35,737 nucleotides of DNA from a virus (taxonomy: Duplodnaviria; Caudoviricetes), in the IMG/VR virus record IMGVR_UViG_3300037465_000254, positions 1 to 35,737 of that record. One strand, written 5' to 3'. The position numbers and the translations under genes are program-made. Below the pieces are notes generated by a model. The model saw only the letters and a list, made by a program, of their open reading frames with translations, was not told where the DNA came from and searched no databases. Shown here piece after piece: positions 10,764 to 29,936 of this stretch (its first letter is position 1; every line of letters starts with the position of its first letter).

Positions 10764-11408
10764 CTAGGCGCTCGCCTCGATGCGGGAGAGTCGCCGCTCC
10801 CAGTCCCTCACGATCAGCTCGTCGAGCCCGTCCACGGCCTTCGCGATGTCCCTCTGGAAGTCCAGACGTGGTCTGATCCGGGCATTGGGAACGAGGACGA
10901 ACGCCGTAACATCGGGCCGATCGGCGAAGACCAGCCGCGCGGTCCTGCCGTTCTTGCCAGGCACGAACAGGAGTTTCCCCTTCGGATAGTCGGACGGCTG
11001 CTTGCGGACGTCCCCACCGCGCAGGCCTCGACCCGTGAACCCTACAGCGTCGGTCGGAATTGCCAGAAATCGCTTGCCGTGGGGCCGGATCGTCGCGCCT
11101 TCCATGAACACGCGGATCAGGTCAACGAACCTGCCGGTGTTGCGCTTCTTCCCGACAGCGGACACGTCGAAGACCACGCCTTTCGCGCCCATGCTCTCGC
11201 CACGCGGCGGGTAGACCACCCCGCGGATCGTGTTCGCCAGCCGCGGCCCCAGGCCCGCGGCGCGCACGCGACGGCGCATGTTGTCCTTAAGGGCGTTCGT
11301 CCGCCGGCGGATGCCGGACGTGACTGCCTGAGCCCCCGCCTTCTCCCCGCGTTCGTAGATGCGCTTGGCGGATCCGCGCTGCCGGACGAATAGCTGCAGA
11401 CCGCTCAT
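10764..11408 (-). CDS. Basic phage morphogenesis protein (DUF6441-like)
   Basis: 'AAGLGPRLANTIR', 'EGATIRP..KRFLAIPT', 'FVLVP...RPRLD'. Confidence 0.7.
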   Translation of the reverse strand: MSGLQLFVRQRGSAKRIYERGEKAGAQAVTSGIRRRTNALKDNMRRRVRAAGLGPRLANTIRGVVYPPRGESMGAKGVVFDVSAVGKKRNTGRFVDLIRVFMEGATIRPHGKRFLAIPTDAVGFTGRGLRGGDVRKQPSDYPKGKLLFVPGKNGRTARLVFADRPDVTAFVLVPNARIRPRLDFQRDIAKAVDGLDELIVRDWERRLSRIEASA

Positions 11409-12261
11409 GACTGGGAATCGAGCTCCGCCTTCGCTCTGTCCATCACGTCGAACGCCTCCACCATGATTGCCGGCTGGTCCAACAGGCCGCCGCCCTCGAG
11501 CATGGCCCCTTGGCGCTCAATGGAGCCGCGCCACTGGTCCCAGAGGCGCACCATGTCCCGCTCCTCGGGGCCGATCAGGTACCTGGGGTTGGTGCTGTAT
11601 CGATCGCCGAAGAGCTTCCACTCTGATCCGTCTGGCGGGTCGCGGCCGAAGGCGAAGGCTGCGGGGCAGCTGGCGATCGCGACGGCGAGCTGTAGCTTTT
11701 TTTTTGCTCCTCGCTGATGGACATGAGGCGCACAGCCTCAATGCCGATCTCGTCGAGGTGCCGCTCGTCGAGCCGGTTCAGACATTCATCCGTGACGAGT
11801 CCGCCCCGCGTCTCGAAGGGCACATCGACGTTGACCCAGCCGCGGAGCATGTAGCGTGCCGCCATGTACTTCATGCTGGGCCACCATGCGCCGTCGAGGG
11901 CAACGAGGTTCGCATAGGGCGGAAAATGCTGGTGGGCGATGGACGTAAGTTCCAGGAGCCGCCGTTGATCATCCTCGTCCAGCCGCTCTCCCTTCAGGAC
12001 ATCGACGCCCCGCGCGCGCTCCAGCAGATCGAGGAGCTCGGGTCGCTGATCGGCCGCAACCACGAAGCGTACGGCGTCTCCGAGGCACTCGAGTAGTTCG
12101 CTTCTGTCCACGAAGCGCGCGCCGGAGGCAATCACGGCGCGGCGGACTTCCTTCTTTCCCCAGACTGAGGCGACGCCGACGAGATACGTCGGCGGCTTTT
12201 CCATTTCGGAGCACCCGGAAGGAACGAAGTGCACTACATCGCGGGTCGAGGCGGGTAACAT
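11405..12261 (-). CDS. Tail assembly chaperone, -1 frameshifted long form (gpGT-like), about 285 aa
   Basis: A9 run at 11697-11705. The -1 frame reads KLQLAVAIASCPAAF...GGLLDQPAIMVEAFDVMDRAKAELDSQS and stops in an ATGA overlap with the next gene. Confidence 0.85.
11575..12261 (-). CDS. Tail assembly chaperone (gpG-like)
   Basis: Lies between tail tube and tape measure genes; ends in a Ser/Pro-rich tail after the 'EEQKK' slippery site. Confidence 0.85.
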   Translation of the reverse strand: MLPASTRDVVHFVPSGCSEMEKPPTYLVGVASVWGKKEVRRAVIASGARFVDRSELLECLGDAVRFVVAADQRPELLDLLERARGVDVLKGERLDEDDQRRLLELTSIAHQHFPPYANLVALDGAWWPSMKYMAARYMLRGWVNVDVPFETRGGLVTDECLNRLDERHLDEIGIEAVRLMSISEEQKKSYSSPSRSPAAPQPSPSAATRQTDQSGSSSAIDTAPTPGT

Positions 12262-19816: not shown

Positions 19817-20716
19817 ATGAAGCGCGATGTCTACCAGGATGTTACCGATCGGATCGTCAAGTCCCTCGAGAACGGAGTCGCCCCCTGGGTCAAGCCCTGG
19901 AAGAGCGACGGCCGCAGCGCCGGCGTTCACCGGAACGCCCTGACCCGCCGTCCCTACCACGGGATCAACGTCTGCCTGTTGACGCTCGAGCAGATGTGCA
20001 AGGGCTACGAATCGGGCGAGTGGGTCACCTATCGACAAGCGAAGGAACTCGGCGGACACGTTCGCAAGGGCGAGAAGGCGACCCCGATCGTGCTCTGGAA
20101 GAAGTACGAGAAAAACGCGACGGACGAACAGGGCCGACCGCTCTTCAATGAGGACGGCGAGCGCGTAAAGAAGACGCTCCTCTTCGCGCGCATGTTCTCG
20201 GTATTCAACGTCGAGCAGTGCGACGGCTTGACAGCGGAACAGCCGACCGAGCGGCCGAAGGGGTTCGTCGGGTACGAGGGGATCGACGCGGCGATCGCCA
20301 ACATCGGCGCCACAATCGACCACGGCGGGGACCGTGCGTACTACTCTCCATCGGCGGACCGCATCCGCCTGCCGCGACCGGCGCAGTTCGCCGACGCCGC
20401 CAGCTATTACGCGACCGCGGCGCACGAGCTCACGCATTGGACCGGGCACGCGTCCCGGCTCGCGCGTGATCTGTCCGGTCGATTCGGTGACGAGTCCTAT
20501 GCGGCGGAGGAACTGATCGCGGAAATGGGCGCCGCCTTCACGTGCGCCACGCTCGGGATCGCGGGGCACCTCCAGCACGCCGAGTATATCGGCAGCTGGA
20601 TCAAGGTTCTGAAGAACGACAAGCGCGCGATATTCACGGCCGCGAGCAAGGCACAGGAAGCTGCGGACTTCCTCCTGGCTAGAGCGCTGCGCGAGGAGGT
20701 TCGGGAAGCCGCCTGA
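19817..20716 (+). CDS. ardC: ArdC-family antirestriction protein (ssDNA-binding domain plus zincin-like domain)
   Basis: 'YQDVTDRIV..LENGVAPWVKPW', 'PYHGIN', 'WVTYRQA..LGG.VRKGEK', 'HELTHWTGH..RL.R', 'YAAEELIAEMGAAF'; GAGGAGG RBS. Confidence 0.92.
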   Translation: MKRDVYQDVTDRIVKSLENGVAPWVKPWKSDGRSAGVHRNALTRRPYHGINVCLLTLEQMCKGYESGEWVTYRQAKELGGHVRKGEKATPIVLWKKYEKNATDEQGRPLFNEDGERVKKTLLFARMFSVFNVEQCDGLTAEQPTERPKGFVGYEGIDAAIANIGATIDHGGDRAYYSPSADRIRLPRPAQFADAASYYATAAHELTHWTGHASRLARDLSGRFGDESYAAEELIAEMGAAFTCATLGIAGHLQHAEYIGSWIKVLKNDKRAIFTAASKAQEAADFLLARALREEVREAA

Positions 20717-20764
20717 ATCCCCACCACAGACCGCCCCTGCGGGGGCGGTCGATGGTGGGGATTC
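20715..20764. repeat. Intergenic hairpin, copy 1
   Basis: GAATCCCCACCA/TGGTGGGGATTC outer stem, GACCGCCCC/GGGGCGGTC inner stem, TGCG loop. Confidence 0.9.
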
Positions 20765-20791
20765 CACCGAGCAACCACGAGGAGATTCAAT

Positions 20792-21259
20792 ATGAACGCA
20801 GCCATCAATGCAGAGACGCCGCCCCAGGAATACTCCGCGCTGCAGGTCGCGCATGCCATCGGCGTCCTGGCCCCTTTTATCGGTAGTTCACAACTCGCAG
20901 CAGTGCGCGTGTTCCTCCGGGGCGAAGAGCGGGGTTTCTTCGCCGGCAAACTGATCGAGCTCGCGGAGACGATCGCGAAGATGCCGAAGACGTACGATCA
21001 GGACGGAAAAGGCGATCAGGCTGTCGCCTACCTCCATTACTTCTACCGCGGGGCGGACTGGTACATCATGGAGAAGGACTCCGACCCGGACGGCGAAGGA
21101 CAACTACAGGCGTTCGGGCTCGCCGATCTCGGCCTCGGATTTCCCGAACTCGGGTACATTTCGATCCCGGAAGTCCTGAGCGTCGGCGCGAAGATTGATT
21201 TCCATTTCACGCCGAAGACGATCGGCGAGGTCAGGCGAGAAAAGTACGGCGCCGCCTGA
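20792..21259 (+). CDS. DUF2958-like protein
   Basis: 'MPKTYDQDGKG', 'LHYF..GADWYIMEKD', 'QAFGLADLG...ELGYISI.E'; GAGGAG RBS. Confidence 0.75.
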   Translation: MNAAINAETPPQEYSALQVAHAIGVLAPFIGSSQLAAVRVFLRGEERGFFAGKLIELAETIAKMPKTYDQDGKGDQAVAYLHYFYRGADWYIMEKDSDPDGEGQLQAFGLADLGLGFPELGYISIPEVLSVGAKIDFHFTPKTIGEVRREKYGAA

Positions 21260-21304
21260 GTCTCCAGCTACGCCGGCCTGCGGGCCGGCGATTGGTGGAG
21301 ATTC
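21258..21304. repeat. Intergenic hairpin, copy 2
   Basis: GAGTCTCCA/TGGAGATTC outer stem, CGCCGGCC/GGCCGGCG inner stem, TGCG loop. Confidence 0.85.
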
Positions 21305-21347
21305 CTTCACCCGGTTCCTCAGCCGGTCGCTGAGGTGGAGAGCAAAT

Positions 21348-21626
21348 ATGAAGCGTATCCCGGATGTTGTGATGTCGGACAAGAAGGGGATCGAGGAGTG
21401 GCGCGGCTCCCTCCACGAGTTCTTGAAGACCAATGCCGGCGAGGACCACGGCGGCCAGGGGCGCGAGACCGTCCGCGATTTCGTCCAGGCAATGCGTGCG
21501 TCCTTCGCGTCCTTCTCGGGCGAGACAATCGCCGATGGCGCCGAGTATTATCCCGAACGTCCCGGCGTGGTCTCCTGCGGTGGCGGTGCTGCGCCGGTTT
21601 TCCTGCTGTCCCTGGTGGAGCGCTAA
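21348..21626 (+). CDS. Hypothetical protein (92 aa)
   Basis: GGAG RBS before ATG 21348. Confidence 0.7.
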   Translation: MKRIPDVVMSDKKGIEEWRGSLHEFLKTNAGEDHGGQGRETVRDFVQAMRASFASFSGETIADGAEYYPERPGVVSCGGGAAPVFLLSLVER

Positions 21627-21627
21627 C

Positions 21628-21942
21628 GTGGACAAGTCCCACTCGATGTTCCAGCTGCGCCCGCCCCGCGCGGGCGAGACCGGGCATCGGCTAATCTACC
21701 GATATCCCTTCAGGTCGCCGGAGGTCTGCCGGGCCGTGCCGGTGATCCCTGACCCCGTGCCGAACACGGTTCAAATCGGCCTATTCACGCGCGACGGATT
21801 CCGCCCGTCGCGTCGCTGGCTGCCGCTGCTACGCATCCCGTCCGTCCGGGACCGGATCTGCGAAGACATGGAAACGCTCTACGGTCCGGGTGGGCCGTAC
21901 GCTTCCGACACCGTGCAGCGCGAGGAGTCTTCCGATGGCTGA
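21628..21942 (+). CDS. Hypothetical protein
   Basis: GTG start 1 nt after the previous stop, with a GGAG RBS. Confidence 0.55.
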   Translation: MDKSHSMFQLRPPRAGETGHRLIYRYPFRSPEVCRAVPVIPDPVPNTVQIGLFTRDGFRPSRRWLPLLRIPSVRDRICEDMETLYGPGGPYASDTVQREESSDG

Positions 21943-22198
21943 CATCTACCGTAACGTCCCGTTGGCATCCACGCTACGGTTGATCCGACGCATCGATCGC
22001 AAGGCAGCAACGATGGCGGAGCTTACCGACGAGCTCGATGTTTCCGCGGCAACGGTGAAGCGCACCATCCGCGCCGCCCGCGAGCTCCTCGGCGTCTGCA
22101 TCGAATGGGATGGGGCGCCCGGCGTCGCTGGCGGGAAGTACGTGATCCGAAACTGGGGCGCTTTGGACCGCGGCCGCCTTCGCCGCCTCAGTCCATAA
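21935..22198 (+). CDS. Small winged helix-turn-helix regulator
   Basis: 'TMAELTDELDVSAATVKRTI' HTH and 'GKYVIRNWGALD' wing (resembles HTH_43); GAGGAG RBS. Confidence 0.75.
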   Translation: MADIYRNVPLASTLRLIRRIDRKAATMAELTDELDVSAATVKRTIRAARELLGVCIEWDGAPGVAGGKYVIRNWGALDRGRLRRLSP

Positions 22199-24218
22199 TC
22201 CGAGCCCGGCCTCCACGGAGGCGCCTTCGCTTTCGCAACGGTACCGCCGGCCCTGCGGCCTTCTCTTCCTGCGAGCGGCCCTCCCCTGCTGGCGTCGCCG
22301 CGGCCGCTTGAAGCCCCTCACGCACAGTCTCGATCGCGACGTGCCGCTGCTTTGCCAGCTGCTCCCATTGCCGCGGCGTCAGGCGGTCCATTCCCAGGTG
22401 CACGGCGAGCGCGAGGGCGCCGACGACGATATCGAGCTGCTCATTCGGCTGCCCTGTCTTCTTGCGCCAGACGCGCATGGTGCAGCCGCGGGTCTCGACA
22501 TCTTCGACGTATTCCGCGGTGATCTGTTTGAAGAACTCGCGATCGCAGATGTGCGGGAAATGCAGTGCGCCGACTTTCCAGCGGCCGTCATCGTTCGGCC
22601 CTTCTATGGTCTTCCGCAGCATTTCGTAGACCCATGCCTTCAGCATCCAGGTCCCGACCGGCCAGAGCTGGCATCCTTTCCTGATCTTCTTCCCCTTCCA
22701 GTTGATATCGACTGGGCGCGGCGTCCCCATCGCCGGGTGCGTGTGTCCTGCGCGTCCGTCCATTGCGAAGACGCGGGGTTGTCGTCCACGGCAGAAGAGG
22801 TAGACGCGATGCGACTCGTATCCGGCGTCCACCCCGAAGGCGTCCACGTTCCAGATGTTGCCGGCCTCGTCCTCGAGCGGTCGCTCGATGATAGCCTCGA
22901 GCTGATCCCACACCCCGTCGCTGCCGGGATCGCCCTCGATAACGCCCTTCTCGATGAGCCAGCCGGATAACTTCACGCCCCAGCCGTAAAGCGCCCACTC
23001 GATCCGGTTCTTCTGGACGTCGGCCATGCCCGTGATCGCGAGTACCCCGCGCGGGACGATAGCGGCGGGGAAAGCCTCCCGGCGCAGGTAGAGCTTCTCG
23101 TCATCGGGCGCGTCGCCGCTCTCCTTCCATGCAACCCCGAGGACCTGCTGATAGAAAACCTTCTCCTTGAACGGGTTCCCCTCCGCGTCCTTCCATTCAG
23201 TTACGCAGTCATCCCATGCCACGAATGGCGAATAGAGCTGATTGATATAGAAACCCGGCTCGCGCCCTGGCGCCTGCCGCCTGCGGAGCTTCTCGATTCC
23301 TTCTGCCGGAATGATGTGCGCGGCGTCCTCGAAGCAGCTTTTGATCCAGACACCGCCCGCGACCATCGCGTGCTTCTGTGCATGCTCTATGGCAGAGCCG
23401 CAGGACTGACATCCATAATACGCCCGCCAGGGGTGCTGCTCGTTGCGCCACTTCAGCTGCTCCCATTCGAGCGTGATGTAATCGCCGCAGTGCGGGCAGG
23501 GAACATAGAACTGGCGCATGTCTGAGGCCTCGTACTTTTTCGTGATGCGGCACTCGCCCTCGACGCCGGGCGTGGAAATGTAAACGCGCTTGTAGCCGAC
23601 GCTGGTCCATGCGGTCGTGCGCTTCTCGGCGAGCGTCACCGGATCGCCGCGCGTACCGACCTCAGCCGGATACTCGGAGACTTCTTCGAGGATGAGCACG
23701 CGGATGGAAACCATCTGCAGGCCGGCGGATGAGTTCGCGCCGGTCAATACCAGGTGCCCGCCGGGGAATCGTTTGAAGGCCGCCGTGGAGCCGGAGGCGT
23801 CCCGACTCTTCTGTTCCTTCACCCTGCCCTGCAGCACGGGTGTCGCGTCGATCGTCGGCTGCAGCTTGATCCGGTTGTACTTCGCGGCCTCGTCCAGCGT
23901 CGGCAGAACGATCATCATCGGGCAGGGATCATGATGTACGACATAGCCGAACAGGTTCAGTCCGGCCTCTGTGCCAGCGATCTGCACGCTTTTCTTCACG
24001 GTGATCTCGGAACACGGATCCGCGAAGGACATGCAATCCATGATCTCAGTCAGGTAAGGCGTTCGCGTGTTCGACCACGGTCCAGGGTGTGGCGAGCCGG
24101 ATTCAGGAGAGACGACGCGGTGCTGCTGTGCCCACTCCGAGACGCGGAGTGGCGGAGGAGGCGTCAGCGCTCGGAGCCACGCCTCGACGACATCAGGAAG
24201 ACTGACGTACGGCTCTAC
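22188..24218 (-). CDS. terL: Terminase large subunit (gpA family); reading frame lacks a canonical start for its N-terminus
   Basis: Walker A-like 'KSVQIAGTE', Walker B-like 'VLILEE', 'ISTP', 'YVPCPHCG' and 'ADVQKNR'. gpA-like 'PPPPLRVSEWA...GPWSNTRTPYLTEIMD' lies upstream of the first ATG at 24041. Confidence 0.93.
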   Translation of the reverse strand, partial: VEPYVSLPDVVEAWLRALTPPPPLRVSEWAQQHRVVSPESGSPHPGPWSNTRTPYLTEIMDCMSFADPCSEITVKKSVQIAGTEAGLNLFGYVVHHDPCPMMIVLPTLDEAAKYNRIKLQPTIDATPVLQGRVKEQKSRDASGSTAAFKRFPGGHLVLTGANSSAGLQMVSIRVLILEEVSEYPAEVGTRGDPVTLAEKRTTAWTSVGYKRVYISTPGVEGECRITKKYEASDMRQFYVPCPHCGDYITLEWEQLKWRNEQHPWRAYYGCQSCGSAIEHAQKHAMVAGGVWIKSCFEDAAHIIPAEGIEKLRRRQAPGREPGFYINQLYSPFVAWDDCVTEWKDAEGNPFKEKVFYQQVLGVAWKESGDAPDDEKLYLRREAFPAAIVPRGVLAITGMADVQKNRIEWALYGWGVKLSGWLIEKGVIEGDPGSDGVWDQLEAIIERPLEDEAGNIWNVDAFGVDAGYESHRVYLFCRGRQPRVFAMDGRAGHTHPAMGTPRPVDINWKGKKIRKGCQLWPVGTWMLKAWVYEMLRKTIEGPNDDGRWKVGALHFPHICDREFFKQITAEYVEDVETRGCTMRVWRKKTGQPNEQLDIVVGALALAVHLGMDRLTPRQWEQLAKQRHVAIETVREGLQAAAATPAGEGRSQEEKAAGPAVPLRKRRRLRGGRARIMD

Positions 24219-24227
24219 TTTTTTTTT
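24188..24227 (-). promoter_or_regulatory. Putative -1 frameshift signal (A_AAA_AAG plus downstream stem-loop)
   Basis: CTA AAA AAA AAG TAG at the end of terS; stem ACGTCAG (24208-24202) / CTGATGT (24196-24190). Confidence 0.7.
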
Positions 24228-24691
24228 AGGAGCTCGTCGAACTCGGCGCCGGCGCGGCCGAACGCGGTCGCGATCCAGTCGTCGAGAAGCCGGCTGATCT
24301 CTCGCACGTCCTTTACGCCGGCCAGCCGGCGGGCGTAATCGCGGTTGTTCATGCGGAGTCGATGCAGGTGCCGGCGCAAGATGTCCTCGCCTACGGCGAT
24401 CGCCTTGCTCCGATCGATCAGATCGCCCTGGCGCTCGCGCAGCCGGAGTGCGGCGAGCTGCGCCTCAGCTACGGCGAGGGCGGTCTTCGCTTTGCCGTAG
24501 TTCTCAGGCATTCCGGCGGCCGCGCCGACCCGCGGCCGCACATTCTCAGCCCGGAACCGCTCCGCTTCCTCTGGATCGACGCCGTCCGGGTGCTTCAGGT
24601 CCTGCGGCAGCTGCCGCGAGAGCGTGGACGGATTTACGCCCAACTGCGCCGCAGCTTTCCGCAGGGATATTCGGCGTGCTCTCCGTGCCAT
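24215..24691 (-). CDS. terS: Terminase small subunit (Nu1-like)
   Basis: N-terminal HTH 'SLRKAAAQLGVNPSTLSR' and coiled coil 'AQLAALRLRERQGDLIDR'; directly upstream of terL. Confidence 0.85.
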   Translation of the reverse strand: MARRARRISLRKAAAQLGVNPSTLSRQLPQDLKHPDGVDPEEAERFRAENVRPRVGAAAGMPENYGKAKTALAVAEAQLAALRLRERQGDLIDRSKAIAVGEDILRRHLHRLRMNNRDYARRLAGVKDVREISRLLDDWIATAFGRAGAEFDELLKKK

Positions 24692-24730
24692 CGGCCGGGT
24701 TTTTCCTTCGATTCGAATAACTTAAAAGTG

Positions 24731-24760
24731 TAGAAAAATCAGTAAGTTGAATGCTAAAAT
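24731..24760 (+). promoter_or_regulatory. AT-rich divergent control region: IHF-like site and extended -10 for DUF5131
   Basis: AATCAGTAAGTTG (24737-24749) fits WATCARNNNNTTR; TGcTAAAAT at 24752-24760. Confidence 0.55.
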
Positions 24761-24789
24761 GCGGTCTCTCACGTGCGGAGGGGCCGACA

Positions 24790-25587
24790 ATGGACAAGAC
24801 ACTGATCGCCTGGACGGATCACACGCTGAACACGTGGATGGGGTGCATGAAAGTCTCCGACGGCTGTAAGCACTGCTATGCGGAGACGCTCGCTAAGAAT
24901 CGGATGGGGCTTCGCGTATGGGGGCCTGCGGCGACGACGCGGCGTCAACGCACGAAAGCGCCGTGGCAGAACGCTCGCAAGTGGAACAGAGAGGCGGCGC
25001 AGAGCCCTGGTCTGCTCGGCGCCGGTAAGCCGCACGTTGTCTTCCTCGGCAGCATGATGGATTGGGCCGAGGACCACCCAGACGCCGAAGCGATCCGCCC
25101 CGACATGTGGCAACTGATTCGAGAGTGCCGCAACCTCGATTTCCAGATGTTGACCAAGCGGCCGGAGAGGATCCCCGACCTCCTGCCAGATGACTGGGGC
25201 GACGGCTGGCCGAACGTCTGGCTTGGAACATCGATCGAGGACATGCAAGTTGCCGCGCGCGCCGATGCTCTCCGTGAGGTGCCTGCGCGGATCCGGTTCA
25301 TCAGCTACGAGCCCGCCCTCGGCCCGCTGGACGATCTCGATCTCTCGGGCATCCACTGGGTGATCTACGGGGGAGAGAGCGGCCCAGGTCACAGACCGGA
25401 GGGCGAGCCCGGCGATCCGAAAGCATGGGCGCGCGCCATGAGTAATAAGTGCCGCATCGCGGGGCTCGCGTTCTTCCACAAGCAGTCCGCTGCGTCCAGG
25501 ACTGAAATGGGGATCGAGCTCGACGGCCGGATTATCCGGGAGTTCCCGCTCGCGCTCATTCGGTCTCTGCATCGCGCTGCTGCCTAG
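24790..25587 (+). CDS. DUF5131 (phage Gp37/Gp68) three-Cys, radical-SAM-like protein
   Basis: 'IAWTDHT.N.WMGCMKVSDGCKHCYA', 'QMLTKRPER', 'PNVWLGTSIE', 'WVIYGGESGP', 'FFHKQ'; GGAGG RBS before 24790. Confidence 0.92.
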   Translation: MDKTLIAWTDHTLNTWMGCMKVSDGCKHCYAETLAKNRMGLRVWGPAATTRRQRTKAPWQNARKWNREAAQSPGLLGAGKPHVVFLGSMMDWAEDHPDAEAIRPDMWQLIRECRNLDFQMLTKRPERIPDLLPDDWGDGWPNVWLGTSIEDMQVAARADALREVPARIRFISYEPALGPLDDLDLSGIHWVIYGGESGPGHRPEGEPGDPKAWARAMSNKCRIAGLAFFHKQSAASRTEMGIELDGRIIREFPLALIRSLHRAAA

Positions 25588-27245: not shown

Positions 27246-27664
27246 CGCTCCTCTCCCCATGCGGTCTCGAACCACCGGTTCATCGCTTCCGGCCCCGTCT
27301 CGCCATCGGCCAGGATTGCGCGCCGCTCGTGCTCTCCAGTCCGGAGTGTCGCTACTGCACGGCCGGCAGCCCGTGCTTCCCACGCCCGCGCCGACGCTTC
27401 GAGCAGGGCAATATGGTCGTTCTGCCGGCGCACTGTCCCCGCGAGCGCGTCCCGGTTCGCCTCGACCACGGCCCGCGCCTCGCGCTCCTCCGCCAACAAT
27501 CGCCGGGCATCCGCCTCCGACTTCTCCGCCAAGGCGACATTCCGCTCGAGCCCGCGCACGGTCCACGCGTGCCAGCCCCACGTACCAGCCAGCGCGAGCC
27601 CGAGCACGACGCCGACGCCCACCGTCGCCGCCCTCCAGGGATTCGCGAGCAGCCAAGGAATCAC
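27242..27664 (-). CDS. Inner-membrane spanin (Rz-like)
   Basis: N-terminal transmembrane helix plus coiled coil; GTGA overlap with the endolysin stop. Confidence 0.78.
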   Translation of the reverse strand: MIPWLLANPWRAATVGVGVVLGLALAGTWGWHAWTVRGLERNVALAEKSEADARRLLAEEREARAVVEANRDALAGTVRRQNDHIALLEASARAWEARAAGRAVATLRTGEHERRAILADGETGPEAMNRWFETAWGEER

Positions 27665-28287
27665 GTGCACACCCCGGGTCCCCAGCCGGCGGCCACGTAT
27701 AGCGGCTGATGCCGGTAGAGAATGCGTCGCGGATACTCCCGATTCTCCCGACAGGCCCAGTCCGCCCGGACACATTGTGTCTCGACGTGCTCCCACCAGC
27801 GCGCGGCGTCCAGGTTCATCGCCGCGGTGACGCGCCGCTCTCGATTGATCCAGCCGGCGCCCCCGTTATATCCGGCCAGCGCGAAGGCCCAACGGTCGCA
27901 GTCGGTCGCCGCGTAGCCGGCGCGCTCCCAGAGGTGCCGGTCGTAGCGGACCAGGGCGCGCAGCGCCCAGCCTGGATTGAACGGGTCTGGATCCGCGAGC
28001 TCGCCGCGATAGACGCCGCTGATCCACTCCGCGGTCGCCGGCGTGAACTGCGCGAGGCCGGCCGCATACGAAGACTGGGCCCGTTCCCTCCAGGCCGACT
28101 CCTGGTGGACCTGGGCCGCCATCGTCGCAGTCGGCGCCTCGAGTCCCCAGACGAACCGCGCCGCGCGGATCAGGTCATCGCGATATTGGAAGGCGGCGCG
28201 TGGAATGTCAGCCGCACACGCAGATATCGGGACCAATACGATGATGAGACCGAGCGAGAAAGCGCGTGACACGGCGGACACGCTCAC
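27661..28287 (-). CDS. Endolysin, SLT-type lytic transglycosylase with N-terminal signal/anchor
   Basis: 'QVHQESAW', 'AAGLAQFTPATA', 'GYNGGAGW', 'ENREYPRRI'; GTGA overlap with the holin stop. Confidence 0.9.
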   Translation of the reverse strand: MSVSAVSRAFSLGLIIVLVPISACAADIPRAAFQYRDDLIRAARFVWGLEAPTATMAAQVHQESAWRERAQSSYAAGLAQFTPATAEWISGVYRGELADPDPFNPGWALRALVRYDRHLWERAGYAATDCDRWAFALAGYNGGAGWINRERRVTAAMNLDAARWWEHVETQCVRADWACRENREYPRRILYRHQPLYVAAGWGPGVCT

Positions 28288-28595
28288 AGGCCGAGAGTGA
28301 CGCCGATCATGGCGGCCGCGACGATGATCGCGCGGCGCAGCATGCAGCCAACGCCGATGATGTGATGCCCTGGATGCATCCACTCGTGCGGACGCCCGTA
28401 CGGGAACAGCGCCCGGTCCAGGCGATAGCCCACAACGCCGGCGAGCGTAACGAGTGCCAACTTGTAGAGGAGCACCGGAAGGTTCTGAGGCGCAAGCCAC
28501 CACACCACGCCCATGAGCAGCGCCGCGACGAGCAGCCAGTCATACAGCCGCGGCGGTCGCCAGCGCGTCGTGCACTCGGACCATTTCAGGCTCAT
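28284..28595 (-). CDS. Putative holin (2-3 transmembrane helices)
   Basis: 'APQNLPVLLYKLALVTLAGVVGYRLDRALFPYGRP' and 'RRAIIVAAAMIGVTLGL'. Confidence 0.88.
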   Translation of the reverse strand: MSLKWSECTTRWRPPRLYDWLLVAALLMGVVWWLAPQNLPVLLYKLALVTLAGVVGYRLDRALFPYGRPHEWMHPGHHIIGVGCMLRRAIIVAAAMIGVTLGL

Positions 28596-29581
28596 GGCTG
28601 CACCGTTACGGCGAGCTCGGTCACGCCGCGGCGGAGCAGCCGAACCGTGGACTGCCGCCCCAAGGTCGCTGCGATCCGCTGCCCAACCTGGAGTTTCGAG
28701 ACAGCCGGGACGTCGTTGATGCTCAGGATTACGTCGCCCGGCTCGATGCCGGCGCGCATGGCGGCGCCGCCCGGTTGGACCAGCGTGACCAAGACGCCGA
28801 AGCGATACTCGATGCCCAGGCGTCGGCGCTGATCTCCAGCGATCACGTCCTCCACCTCGACGCCGATGCGTCCGTAGCTGATGTCCCAGGTCCGGTCACC
28901 ACGAACCAGCCGCTCCGCTACGTAGTAAGCGAGATCGGCCGAGATCGCGAACCCGACGCCGCTCCCTGCTCCGATGCCGGCGGCATTGATGCCCACGAGT
29001 TCCCCGCGCATGTTGACCAGCGCACCGCCAGAGTTGCCGGGGTTAATCGGCGCATCGGTCTGTATGAAATCCTCGTACGGATTGAGCTCCACGTACTGAT
29101 GGAGGGCGCTGACCACGCCGGCTGTAACCGTATGTCCGAGCCCGAACGGGTTGCCCACCGCGACCACGGGATCCCCGACGTGGAGCCCCGCGAGGTTGGC
29201 CCGCCGAATCGCGACGAGTTCCACGACTCCGGTCGGCACGCGAAGCACGCCAATGTCCGCGCCCTCGTCGCTACCGACGATCTCCGCGGGGAGGAAGTAG
29301 CCGTTCGAGAATGCGACCTTGACATCGGATGGCGTGAGCGCGCCGAGGCCATCGAGGACGTGATGGTTCGTGAGAACCAGGCCGCGCTCTGCGTCGATGA
29401 TGACGCCAGAGCCCAGCGACCGCGGCCGGTATGCGAAGCGGAACGCGTCCGCGTTGATCTCGACGGTAATGGCGACGACGGACGGCAGGACTTCCGCAGA
29501 AACGTCGGAGACCGATCGGGCGCGCGTCTCCCCGCACGTGCAGAGGAGCGCAACAGCGAGCAGCAGCGTGGACAGCTTCAC
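28592..29581 (-). CDS. HtrA/DegS-like trypsin serine protease with one PDZ domain and a signal peptide
   Basis: 'SLGSGVII', 'TNHHV' (His), 'DIGVL' (Asp), 'IQTDAPINPGNSGGAL' (Ser), PDZ 'AMRAGIEPGDVILSIN'; probable GTG start at 29581. Confidence 0.92.
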   Translation of the reverse strand: MKLSTLLLAVALLCTCGETRARSVSDVSAEVLPSVVAITVEINADAFRFAYRPRSLGSGVIIDAERGLVLTNHHVLDGLGALTPSDVKVAFSNGYFLPAEIVGSDEGADIGVLRVPTGVVELVAIRRANLAGLHVGDPVVAVGNPFGLGHTVTAGVVSALHQYVELNPYEDFIQTDAPINPGNSGGALVNMRGELVGINAAGIGAGSGVGFAISADLAYYVAERLVRGDRTWDISYGRIGVEVEDVIAGDQRRRLGIEYRFGVLVTLVQPGGAAMRAGIEPGDVILSINDVPAVSKLQVGQRIAATLGRQSTVRLLRRGVTELAVTVQP

Positions 29582-29582
29582 G

Positions 29583-29936
29583 TCAGTATTTCGGCTCGAG
29601 TTTCCGTTTCGTTTCCTCGTTGATAAGCGTCGCAGCGAGGAGCCTCTCGCAATGGCTGAGGTAGTCGAATGCGTGGTTGACCTCCTGCGAGACTTGCGGA
29701 CGATCCCCGCTCTTCCATCTTGGGAGCGTGAGATACCGCGACACCGCATCATTGAGCATGAGCAGCGCCCGGTCACGGCACGTGTAGTACACGTCGGCTG
29801 TGGACAGCGCGCTGTCGCTTTCGGGAGAGATCACGGGCTGGATGTTCGCCGTGCCCGGCGCGCACCCCGCGAGCATTGTCAAGGCGCAGAGCAGCGCCAC
29901 GACGAGTCGATTACTGCCTCTTGTTTTCATCCCCAT
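29583..29936 (-). CDS. Lipoprotein of unknown function
   Basis: Lipobox 'LCALTMLAG-C'. Confidence 0.72.
   Translation of the reverse strand: MGMKTRGSNRLVVALLCALTMLAGCAPGTANIQPVISPESDSALSTADVYYTCRDRALLMLNDAVSRYLTLPRWKSGDRPQVSQEVNHAFDYLSHCERLLAATLINEETKRKLEPKY

Follow-up and report, generated by a model that had tools for sequence, protein, structure and literature searches.

The subject of this analysis is the junction between the genes for the small and large terminase subunits (terS and terL, encoding TerS and TerL) in the virus record IMGVR_UViG_3300037465_000254. The window, by which we mean the whole stretch of 35,737 bases, is a linear record with a GC content of 64.5% and an estimated completeness of 51%. 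Its minus strand carries a lambda-like head module consisting of terS, terL, and the genes for a head-tail adaptor, portal, S49 protease, decoration protein, capsid, and tail proteins. The genes for TerL, portal, protease, capsid, tail tube, and tape measure are all complete in the window. Features around the junction, with the one further site discussed below, are listed in Table 1.

Table 1. Positions of the terminase junction features and of a second long adenine run in the window
Feature	Position	Strand	Description	Basis
terS	24215..24691	-	Small terminase gene, lambda Nu1 type, 158 aa, complete to last helix
terS stop TAG	24215..24217	-	Adjoins the heptamer directly	Sequence
Nine-A run	24219..24227	-	Last terS codons; likely slippage site	Sequence
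A_AAA_AAG heptamer, terS frame	24218..24224	-	Possible ribosomal -1 site	Sequence and phase
terL	22188..24218	-	Lambda gpA type; 676 codons past the run, intact, frame continuous
Stop TGA	24465..24467	-	Closes the TerL frame upstream	Sequence
Start-less TerL N-terminus	24042..24218	-	59 codons in the -1 frame, between the run and ATG 24041
CTG 24278	24276..24278	-	In frame, inside terS; 696-aa TerL; best rival start
CTG 24167	24165..24167	-	In frame, past the first helix; rival start
ATG 24041	24039..24041	-	First in-frame ATG; gene callers' choice (617 aa); downstream of the conserved N-terminal motifs
Predicted hairpin	24188..24211	-	6 nt 3' of the heptamer; folds as predicted
Second predicted hairpin	24158..24185	-	Pairs CTG 24167 with its upstream GAGG; 60-nt fold
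Second nine-A run	11697..11705	-	In a likely tail assembly chaperone gene (12261-11575)

TerS matches the PHROG family phrog_57 (E 5e-11) and aligns end to end with the terS of its relatives. It has the features of a Nu1-type protein, namely an N-terminal helix-turn-helix (HTH), C-terminal helices (the last predicted at residues 129-157 in the structure model), and a gene position directly 5' of a gpA-type gene. There was no Pfam match and no significant fold match for TerS, and its profile and model returned only weak HTH and coiled-coil matches when compared with structures. TerL is recognized by Pfam GpA_ATPase (E 5e-81, 272 bits) and GpA_nuclease (E 6e-75, 253 bits), for which the curated cut-offs are 25.6 and 22.5 bits, and by phrog_15; its profile matched no solved structure, and no solved gpA-type chain was found by sequence. 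The Nu1 and gpA genes of lambda (J02459) share these families and the gene order (phrog_57, GpA_ATPase, GpA_nuclease), and the portal, S49 protease, decoration, and capsid genes come after the terminase in both genomes. TerL and lambda gpA are 27% identical over 200 aa. Neither gene is unusual for its family, Nu1 for terS and gpA for terL. The host is likely an alphaproteobacterium because the named relatives of TerL belong to that class (e.g., Inquilinus, Parvibaculum, Azospirillum).

The 3' end of terS reads CTA AAA AAA AAG TAG. TerL lies in the -1 frame relative to terS, in a reading frame open from the TGA at 24467 to 22188, and the 141 codons of this frame that precede ATG 24041 contain no ATG, GTG, or TTG. 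An earlier note on this DNA had reported this lack of a start before ATG 24041, which is confirmed over all 141 codons, and its coordinates for terS, the nine-A (A9) run, the 59 extra codons, and the upstream stop all hold. The fusion of about 834 aa and 93 kDa that it had proposed corresponds to 834 aa and 93.6 kDa when TerS and TerL are joined across the run by computation. Its list of rival starts, CTG 24167 and ATG 24041, was incomplete, as the in-frame CTG 24278 had been overlooked.

Long A or T runs are rare in the window. There are 14 runs of length five and three of length six; lengths seven and eight do not occur, and two runs have length nine. The number of runs of nine or more expected from Markov shuffles is 0.03-0.05 (orders 1-3) or 0.37 (order 4). 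Both A9 runs are at -1 gene junctions. If the true run had ten As, terS and terL would form a single in-frame open reading frame (ORF) split by an assembly error. Homopolymers are indeed error-prone, and the sequencing run X1, from which a second contig is available, may be the source sample. That Logan contig (depth 17), built separately, nevertheless has the same nine As and is gapless across the junction; it is possibly from the same sample, and minority variants are hidden in it. The truncated TerL gene call stands on two JGI contigs and on the Logan contig, and no relative with an in-frame fusion was found. An assembly error is therefore extremely improbable, and the terS-terL junction is real and non-random. 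Run X2 contains short pieces identical to terS and to terL, none of which spans the junction. Among the sequencing runs listed as carrying this DNA, none is of RNA. At position 23070, within terL, the window and the X1 contig differ by one base.

The codons between the run and ATG 24041 encode a conserved N-terminus. A profile of the relatives' N-termini, built with the window left out, matches TerL from residue 10 past the run with 94 bits. In the AlphaFold2 model, residues 1-8 past the run are unstructured (a predicted linker) and residues 9-18 form a helix, at a modest predicted local distance difference test score (pLDDT 50-66). The W-A and P-G-x-W motifs that follow this first helix are conserved, with near-invariant columns. 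We took the relatives from the best 120 of 2,135 TerL matches, which leaves 119 without the window's own record. The conserved tryptophan (W) is 19-50 residues from the called start in 117 of these 119 (median 36), the start positions being gene-caller choices. The pattern was not matched in the other two, one of which is P0028. This protein, 52% identical to TerL, is called from the residue matching ATG 24041 (608 aa, on a 2,463-base contig); either the contig end truncates it or it is a further start-less case.

These data bear on the explanation that TerL is a separate protein made from a weak non-canonical start (CTG 24278, a GTA re-initiation site overlapping the terS stop, CTG 24167, or ATG 24041), with the A9 run incidental or a pause site. 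The 696 aa from CTG 24278 fall in the size range of full-length relatives, lambda gpA begins at GTG, CTG or ATC starts look real in three other loci of the family (L008, L259, and L289), and 4 of 16 apparent gene starts in the window are also poor for Shine-Dalgarno (SD) pairing (-3.7 or weaker). However, CTG 24278 has no SD match (anti-SD duplex -1.7 kcal/mol), and the extension from it has the codon bias of the terS frame only. ATG 24041 has no SD either (-1.5 kcal/mol), and initiation there would remove the helix and the conserved motifs. Initiation at CTG 24167 would leave 11 residues before the W and remove the helix; the GAGG 14 nt before this codon is stem-paired with it. A separate start would also leave unexplained the position of one of the two long runs of the window and the recurrence of the run across lineages, described below. 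We regard a separate start as quite unlikely. As regards annotation, gene callers trim 59-62 residues from the window TerL.

TerL has no ordinary start, and its frame is displaced by one base from that of terS behind the A9 run, so that it is likely made only as a fusion. It is probable that TerL is produced as a TerS-TerL fusion, whether by slippage or by a ribosomal shift, and our tentative preference is that the 834-aa fusion arises mainly through slippage of RNA polymerase on A9. Nine As or Ts are the known threshold of efficient polymerase slippage in bacteria, and coding runs of this length are avoided (PMC5009743 and PMC1088944, in part). The window has a run of at least nine As in coding sequence, avoidance of such runs elsewhere in the genome, and conserved coding sequence in the frame that is reached by adding one base. 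In the proposed mechanism, RNA polymerase would slip on A9 and add one A to the transcript. Ten-A transcripts would be translated through three lysine codons and straight into the TerL frame, and unslipped transcripts would yield the free TerS of 158 aa.

The fusion would tie the C-terminal helix of TerS, via the predicted 8-residue linker, to the first helix of TerL. In lambda, one TerL is associated with two TerS, and the C-terminal bundle of TerS is on the N-terminal helix of TerL (PMC10810279; PMC9026076). The fusion would thus join the two parts through which TerS and TerL interact in lambda. The second small subunit of the 2:1 unit could come from free TerS, and TerL output would be limited by how often slippage occurs. 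Fusion of half of the products would directly give the two TerS per TerL of lambda, and a lower rate would leave spare TerS. A ribosomal -1 shift at A_AAA_AAG would give the same protein and may contribute in the window copy. In lambda, the A gene has its own GTG start and a +1 overlap, whereas the window has a -1 overlap and no start, and its product would be covalently joined.

The earlier note had put forward A_AAA_AAG with a 3' hairpin as the leading mechanism. On this reading, a programmed ribosomal -1 shift would be the main source of the fusion, aided by the following stop and hairpin. An X_XXY_YYZ heptamer is present in the zero frame, followed by TAG and, 6 nt on, by the hairpin; A_AAA_AAG is the most shift-prone heptamer in Escherichia coli and the dnaX site (PMC5009743, in part). 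The window copy thereby resembles the -1 shift sites of E. coli dnaX and the insertion sequence (IS) family IS3, with the same heptamer in phase and a hairpin 3' of it (PMC5009743 and PMC4066793, in part). It differs from them in that the hairpin is not beyond chance and that the heptamer and hairpin are not kept in other lineages. The stem-loop folds as the earlier note described, but it is no stronger than those of shuffled sequences (z -0.94, -1.47, and -0.96; -0.10 in a separate test). An Rfam search of 23900-25000 gave no match.

The recurrence of the run also bears on the choice between the two mechanisms. Exactly nine As, in three codon phases, are found at five sites: the window terS, a chaperone-like gene in the window, and the junctions of three other loci, L205, L230, and L177. 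The heptamer A_AAA_AAG is absent from the L205 and L230/L177 lineages, and no heptamer is shared. The junction hairpins of L205 and L230 are unremarkable (z -0.25 and -0.37). Every A9 run includes A_AAA_AAA, with which ribosomal shifting in the other lineages would be compatible, and L177, like the window, has a stop and a hairpin directly 3' of the run. A ribosomal site needs only six As and a G, yet among 82 distinct A6G junctions in the matches listed the only start-less -1 case is the A9 of L205. Likewise, among the matches listed, no run of six to eight As was both -1 and start-less. Slippage on A9 is favored over a dnaX-type shift because the run stays at nine, the codon phase varies, and the hairpin is unexceptional. 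The lead mechanism of the earlier note thus loses its place, and a mainly ribosomal route appears unlikely.

The other lineages came from scanning motif-matching TerL genes for A runs that lie 55-90 nt upstream of the conserved TerL motif; further cases may be missed because of these limits of motif and distance. In viral contigs, the A7 scan gave at least 120 loci (about 130 estimated; 84 distinct), and the A6G scan also gave at least 120. The A9 scan of metagenomes gave six loci, of which four are TerL and two of these start-less (L230, and L228, which is the same as L205). In GTDB genomes, all six loci of the A8 scan have a canonical start.

The L205 lineage (35% GC) differs from its close relatives at the junction. 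A stop directly before A9 closes the TerL frame, which is -1 relative to terS and lacks a start; the junction is identical in three assemblies (L205, L206, and L228). Eight loci that are 90-91% identical to L205 have a +1 overlap with in-frame GTG, ATG, and TTG codons and lack A9; at the junction, they differ from L205 by two bases in length. From the run to the next ATG, the L205 segment keeps the TerL-frame protein, with conservative changes at several codons. The L205 phage is apparently intact, since 50 of 58 ORFs of a relative match its genome (G006) and none is broken on the coding strand. The few bases on either side of the run in the window (CT before, GTAG after; site 24218-24229) are shared with the L205 junction, and the codon phases differ; the likeness may be chance.

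The L230/L177 lineage has a GC content of 52-53%, and its two members are 83% identical over 200 aa. Both have A9 at the terS end and TerL in -1, and their flanks and codon phases differ; L230 has no start. No further member of this clade was found in viral contigs, and annotated phages include no isolate close to L230 (best 37%) or to L205. The junction run is the sole A9/T9 in the genomes G001, G003, and G006 (35-43 kb), and the start-bearing relatives G007 and G008 have none. The window, L205, and L230/L177 lineages are on separate branches, 30-42% identical, in a 49-sequence FastTree tree that includes no formal monophyly test. Recoding that fuses both terminase subunits has perhaps arisen separately in three lineages and would be rare in the family. 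The earlier interpretation is partly supported; its fusion idea is strengthened by the conserved N-terminus upstream of every usable start and by the similar junctions of two unrelated gpA lineages.

Two kinds of candidates were set aside. L096/L200 had seemed to be a further case, but a TTG overlaps the terS stop. L132, L146, L227, and L232 have A9 and normal starts and were scored as misses; in L146 and L232 the A9 follows the ATG start of TerL by a few codons, and slippage at this place would reduce TerL output rather than produce it. The group of L259 and L289 (with L301, L310, and L318) has no ATG, GTG, or TTG and an ATC behind a very strong SD (-12 kcal/mol), with a +1 overlap; these are likely ATC-started large terminases.

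A number of observations weigh against the slippage-made fusion. Scanning viral contigs for the motif recovered 77 loci of the sub-clade to which the window belongs, 58 of them distinct and 57 scorable. An ATG, GTG, or TTG start is present in 56 of the 57 junctions, and the longest A run in them is five or fewer. In a sister branch, P0004 (70% identical), known as a protein call only, is called from a methionine at about the position of the run. The earlier note had named normal starts in close homologs as grounds for rejecting the fusion, and such starts are what these junctions and the P0004 call have; neither the heptamer nor the missing start is shared in the sub-clade. This also counts against the ribosomal signal, which is not conserved. 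The exception, L008 (219-260), has a TerL apparently started by CTG behind a weak SD. Together with L259 and L289, it shows that non-canonical TerL starts occur within the family.

From about 7,700 viral gpA stretches we drew 120 without bias, of which 117 had scorable junctions. All 117 have their own canonical start, with no start-less junction and no A9. A terS is confirmed in 61 of 80 unbiased loci, of which 46 have terS and TerL in a +1 relation, 13 in a -1 relation, and 2 in the same frame, so a -1 relation is by itself common. The start-less A9 junction is, on these comparisons, lineage-specific and not conserved or inherited, because close homologs have ordinary N-termini. A weak search for in-frame TerS-TerL fusions among longer proteins found none. 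Moreover, the ribosomal signal that is best known occurs in the window in the correct phase, and slippage has no need of it.

Within the A9 set itself, five of seven junctions have a canonical start, and A9 at a junction is therefore often incidental. Pooled junctions with the window excluded, among the matches listed, are start-less in 2 of 7 cases with A9 versus 3 of 322 where the run is shorter (Fisher p 0.004), in sets picked by A-run pattern from related sequences and with a definition of start-less (no start at least 18 codons before the W) whose cut-off was chosen after data inspection (20 earlier). The three short-run cases are +1 overlaps with CTG or ATC behind an SD-like stretch, and two of them are one lineage. 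In L205, an in-frame ATA is a possible start, as a fair SD match (-7.3 kcal/mol) lies 13 nt upstream of it, and there is an ATG 12 codons before the W. L177 is ambiguous: 26 codons separate the W from an in-frame ATG, which lacks an SD and is inside a hairpin. The control genome G004 has four A9/T9 runs and a normal start, and the single run of G005 is inside an ATG-started TerL.

The start of P0004 about at the run also fits a change at the DNA level, in which the start was lost in a decaying phage or the run switches between nine and ten As in replication, with the fusion made in a minority of genomes. Long A runs are mutable in replication too (PMC1088944, in part), the record is linear and 51% complete, and contigs mask minority variants. 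Against this, the head and tail genes named above are whole in the window, the L205 lineage is intact with nine As in three assemblies, and a ten-A genome would make no free TerS. A DNA-level origin seems very unlikely.

Searches for closer relatives of the junction gave little. The TerL search of viral contigs found no close junction relative and six loci at 31-36% identity. The TerS search found none in viral contigs and, among proteins, the window's own only. A search of 1.84 billion sequences returned 12 matches, the best other at 37%, and none of the 11 ends read has a lysine run. Two long matches from this search were considered as TerS-TerL fusions and are unrelated repeat proteins.

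The second A9 run of the window is in a gene (11405-12261, minus strand) that sits between the tail tube and tape measure genes. The -1 frame after this run is open to 11408; past the run, the -1 frame scores as coding (0.37, third-position GC (GC3) 0.86) and the 0 frame does not (-0.36). The chaperone label is based on gene position and an ESM Atlas lead (0.87) only, and the gene has no match in Pfam, PHROG, NCBIfam, or annotated phages. By position and frame, 11405-12261 is likely a G/GT-type chaperone pair with A9 in place of the lambda site. In its broadest form, the proposal would be that lambda-like phages have at least three times swapped the TerL start for a slippage-made TerS-TerL fusion, with free TerS completing the 2:1 unit, and that the window phage uses the nine-A device at both its terminase and tail chaperone junctions, slippage setting two assembly ratios. 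Taken as a whole, this is doubtful.

Several known systems resemble the proposed device. The lambda G/GT chaperone likewise has a short product and a longer fusion, whose ratio depends on a slippery site close to the 3' end of the first gene; it differs in being ribosomal, widely conserved, and in other genes, whereas the window junction is sporadic (PMC5009743, in part). Slippage in Thermus thermophilus dnaX and in IS elements shares the coding A9/T9, extra-A mRNAs, and two products (PMC5009743 and PMC1088944, in part). In T. thermophilus dnaX, slippage shortens the product, whereas in the window it would be the sole route to an essential enzyme, as in IS transposase fusions. The device may be likened to G/GT or to dnaX/IS slippage; we claim no class membership for it, as it is known from sequence alone and its signal is not conserved.

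Terminases are usually viewed as two separately started proteins. Full-text literature searches, mostly without subscription papers, found no TerS-TerL recoding. The sole proposal of terminase recoding found in the literature is UUA bypassing in Streptomyces phage Hau3 (PMC10732093 and PMC5009743, in part). There, bypassing occurs inside TerL of another terminase family, 10-nt inserts are skipped at UUA, and no TerS fusion is made (PMC10732093, in part). Bypassing of this kind involves a UUA and a non-coding insert within TerL, whereas the window TerL is continuous over 676 codons. Terminase is unmentioned in the available portions of the main texts of PRFect (PMC10885494), the GeneTack survey (PMC3711429), and PMC4066793; a pair of this kind could still be listed in the supplements of PRFect and PMC4066793. 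Slippage in other phage genes is mentioned in PMC6095929 and PMC2853527, in the portions available.

If the fusion is real, it would be a natural example of a small subunit that can remain tethered to the motor during cutting and packaging, which bears on the assembly of the 2:1 unit and on the need for TerS release. It would also provide a pre-tethered lambda-type holoenzyme for structural work. The terminase would be a second phage assembly gene pair with a recoding-set ratio and possibly a phage use of polymerase slippage. L205 and its relatives L207-L214 are a natural before/after pair, and the idea is directly testable with them.

Around the packaging module, a 2.7-kb block on the opposite strand (19817-22198, plus strand) separates terL from the head-tail adaptor. 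It encodes an ArdC anti-restriction protein (ArdcN, E 2e-40; MPTase-PolyVal, E 2e-52), a DUF2958-like ORF, an unknown ORF, and a small HTH protein. A DUF5131 gene (24751-25587, plus strand) is divergent relative to terS. Upstream of the packaging module, 27661-29776 on the minus strand contains an SLT transglycosylase gene and a gene for a trypsin-PDZ (HtrA-like) protease.

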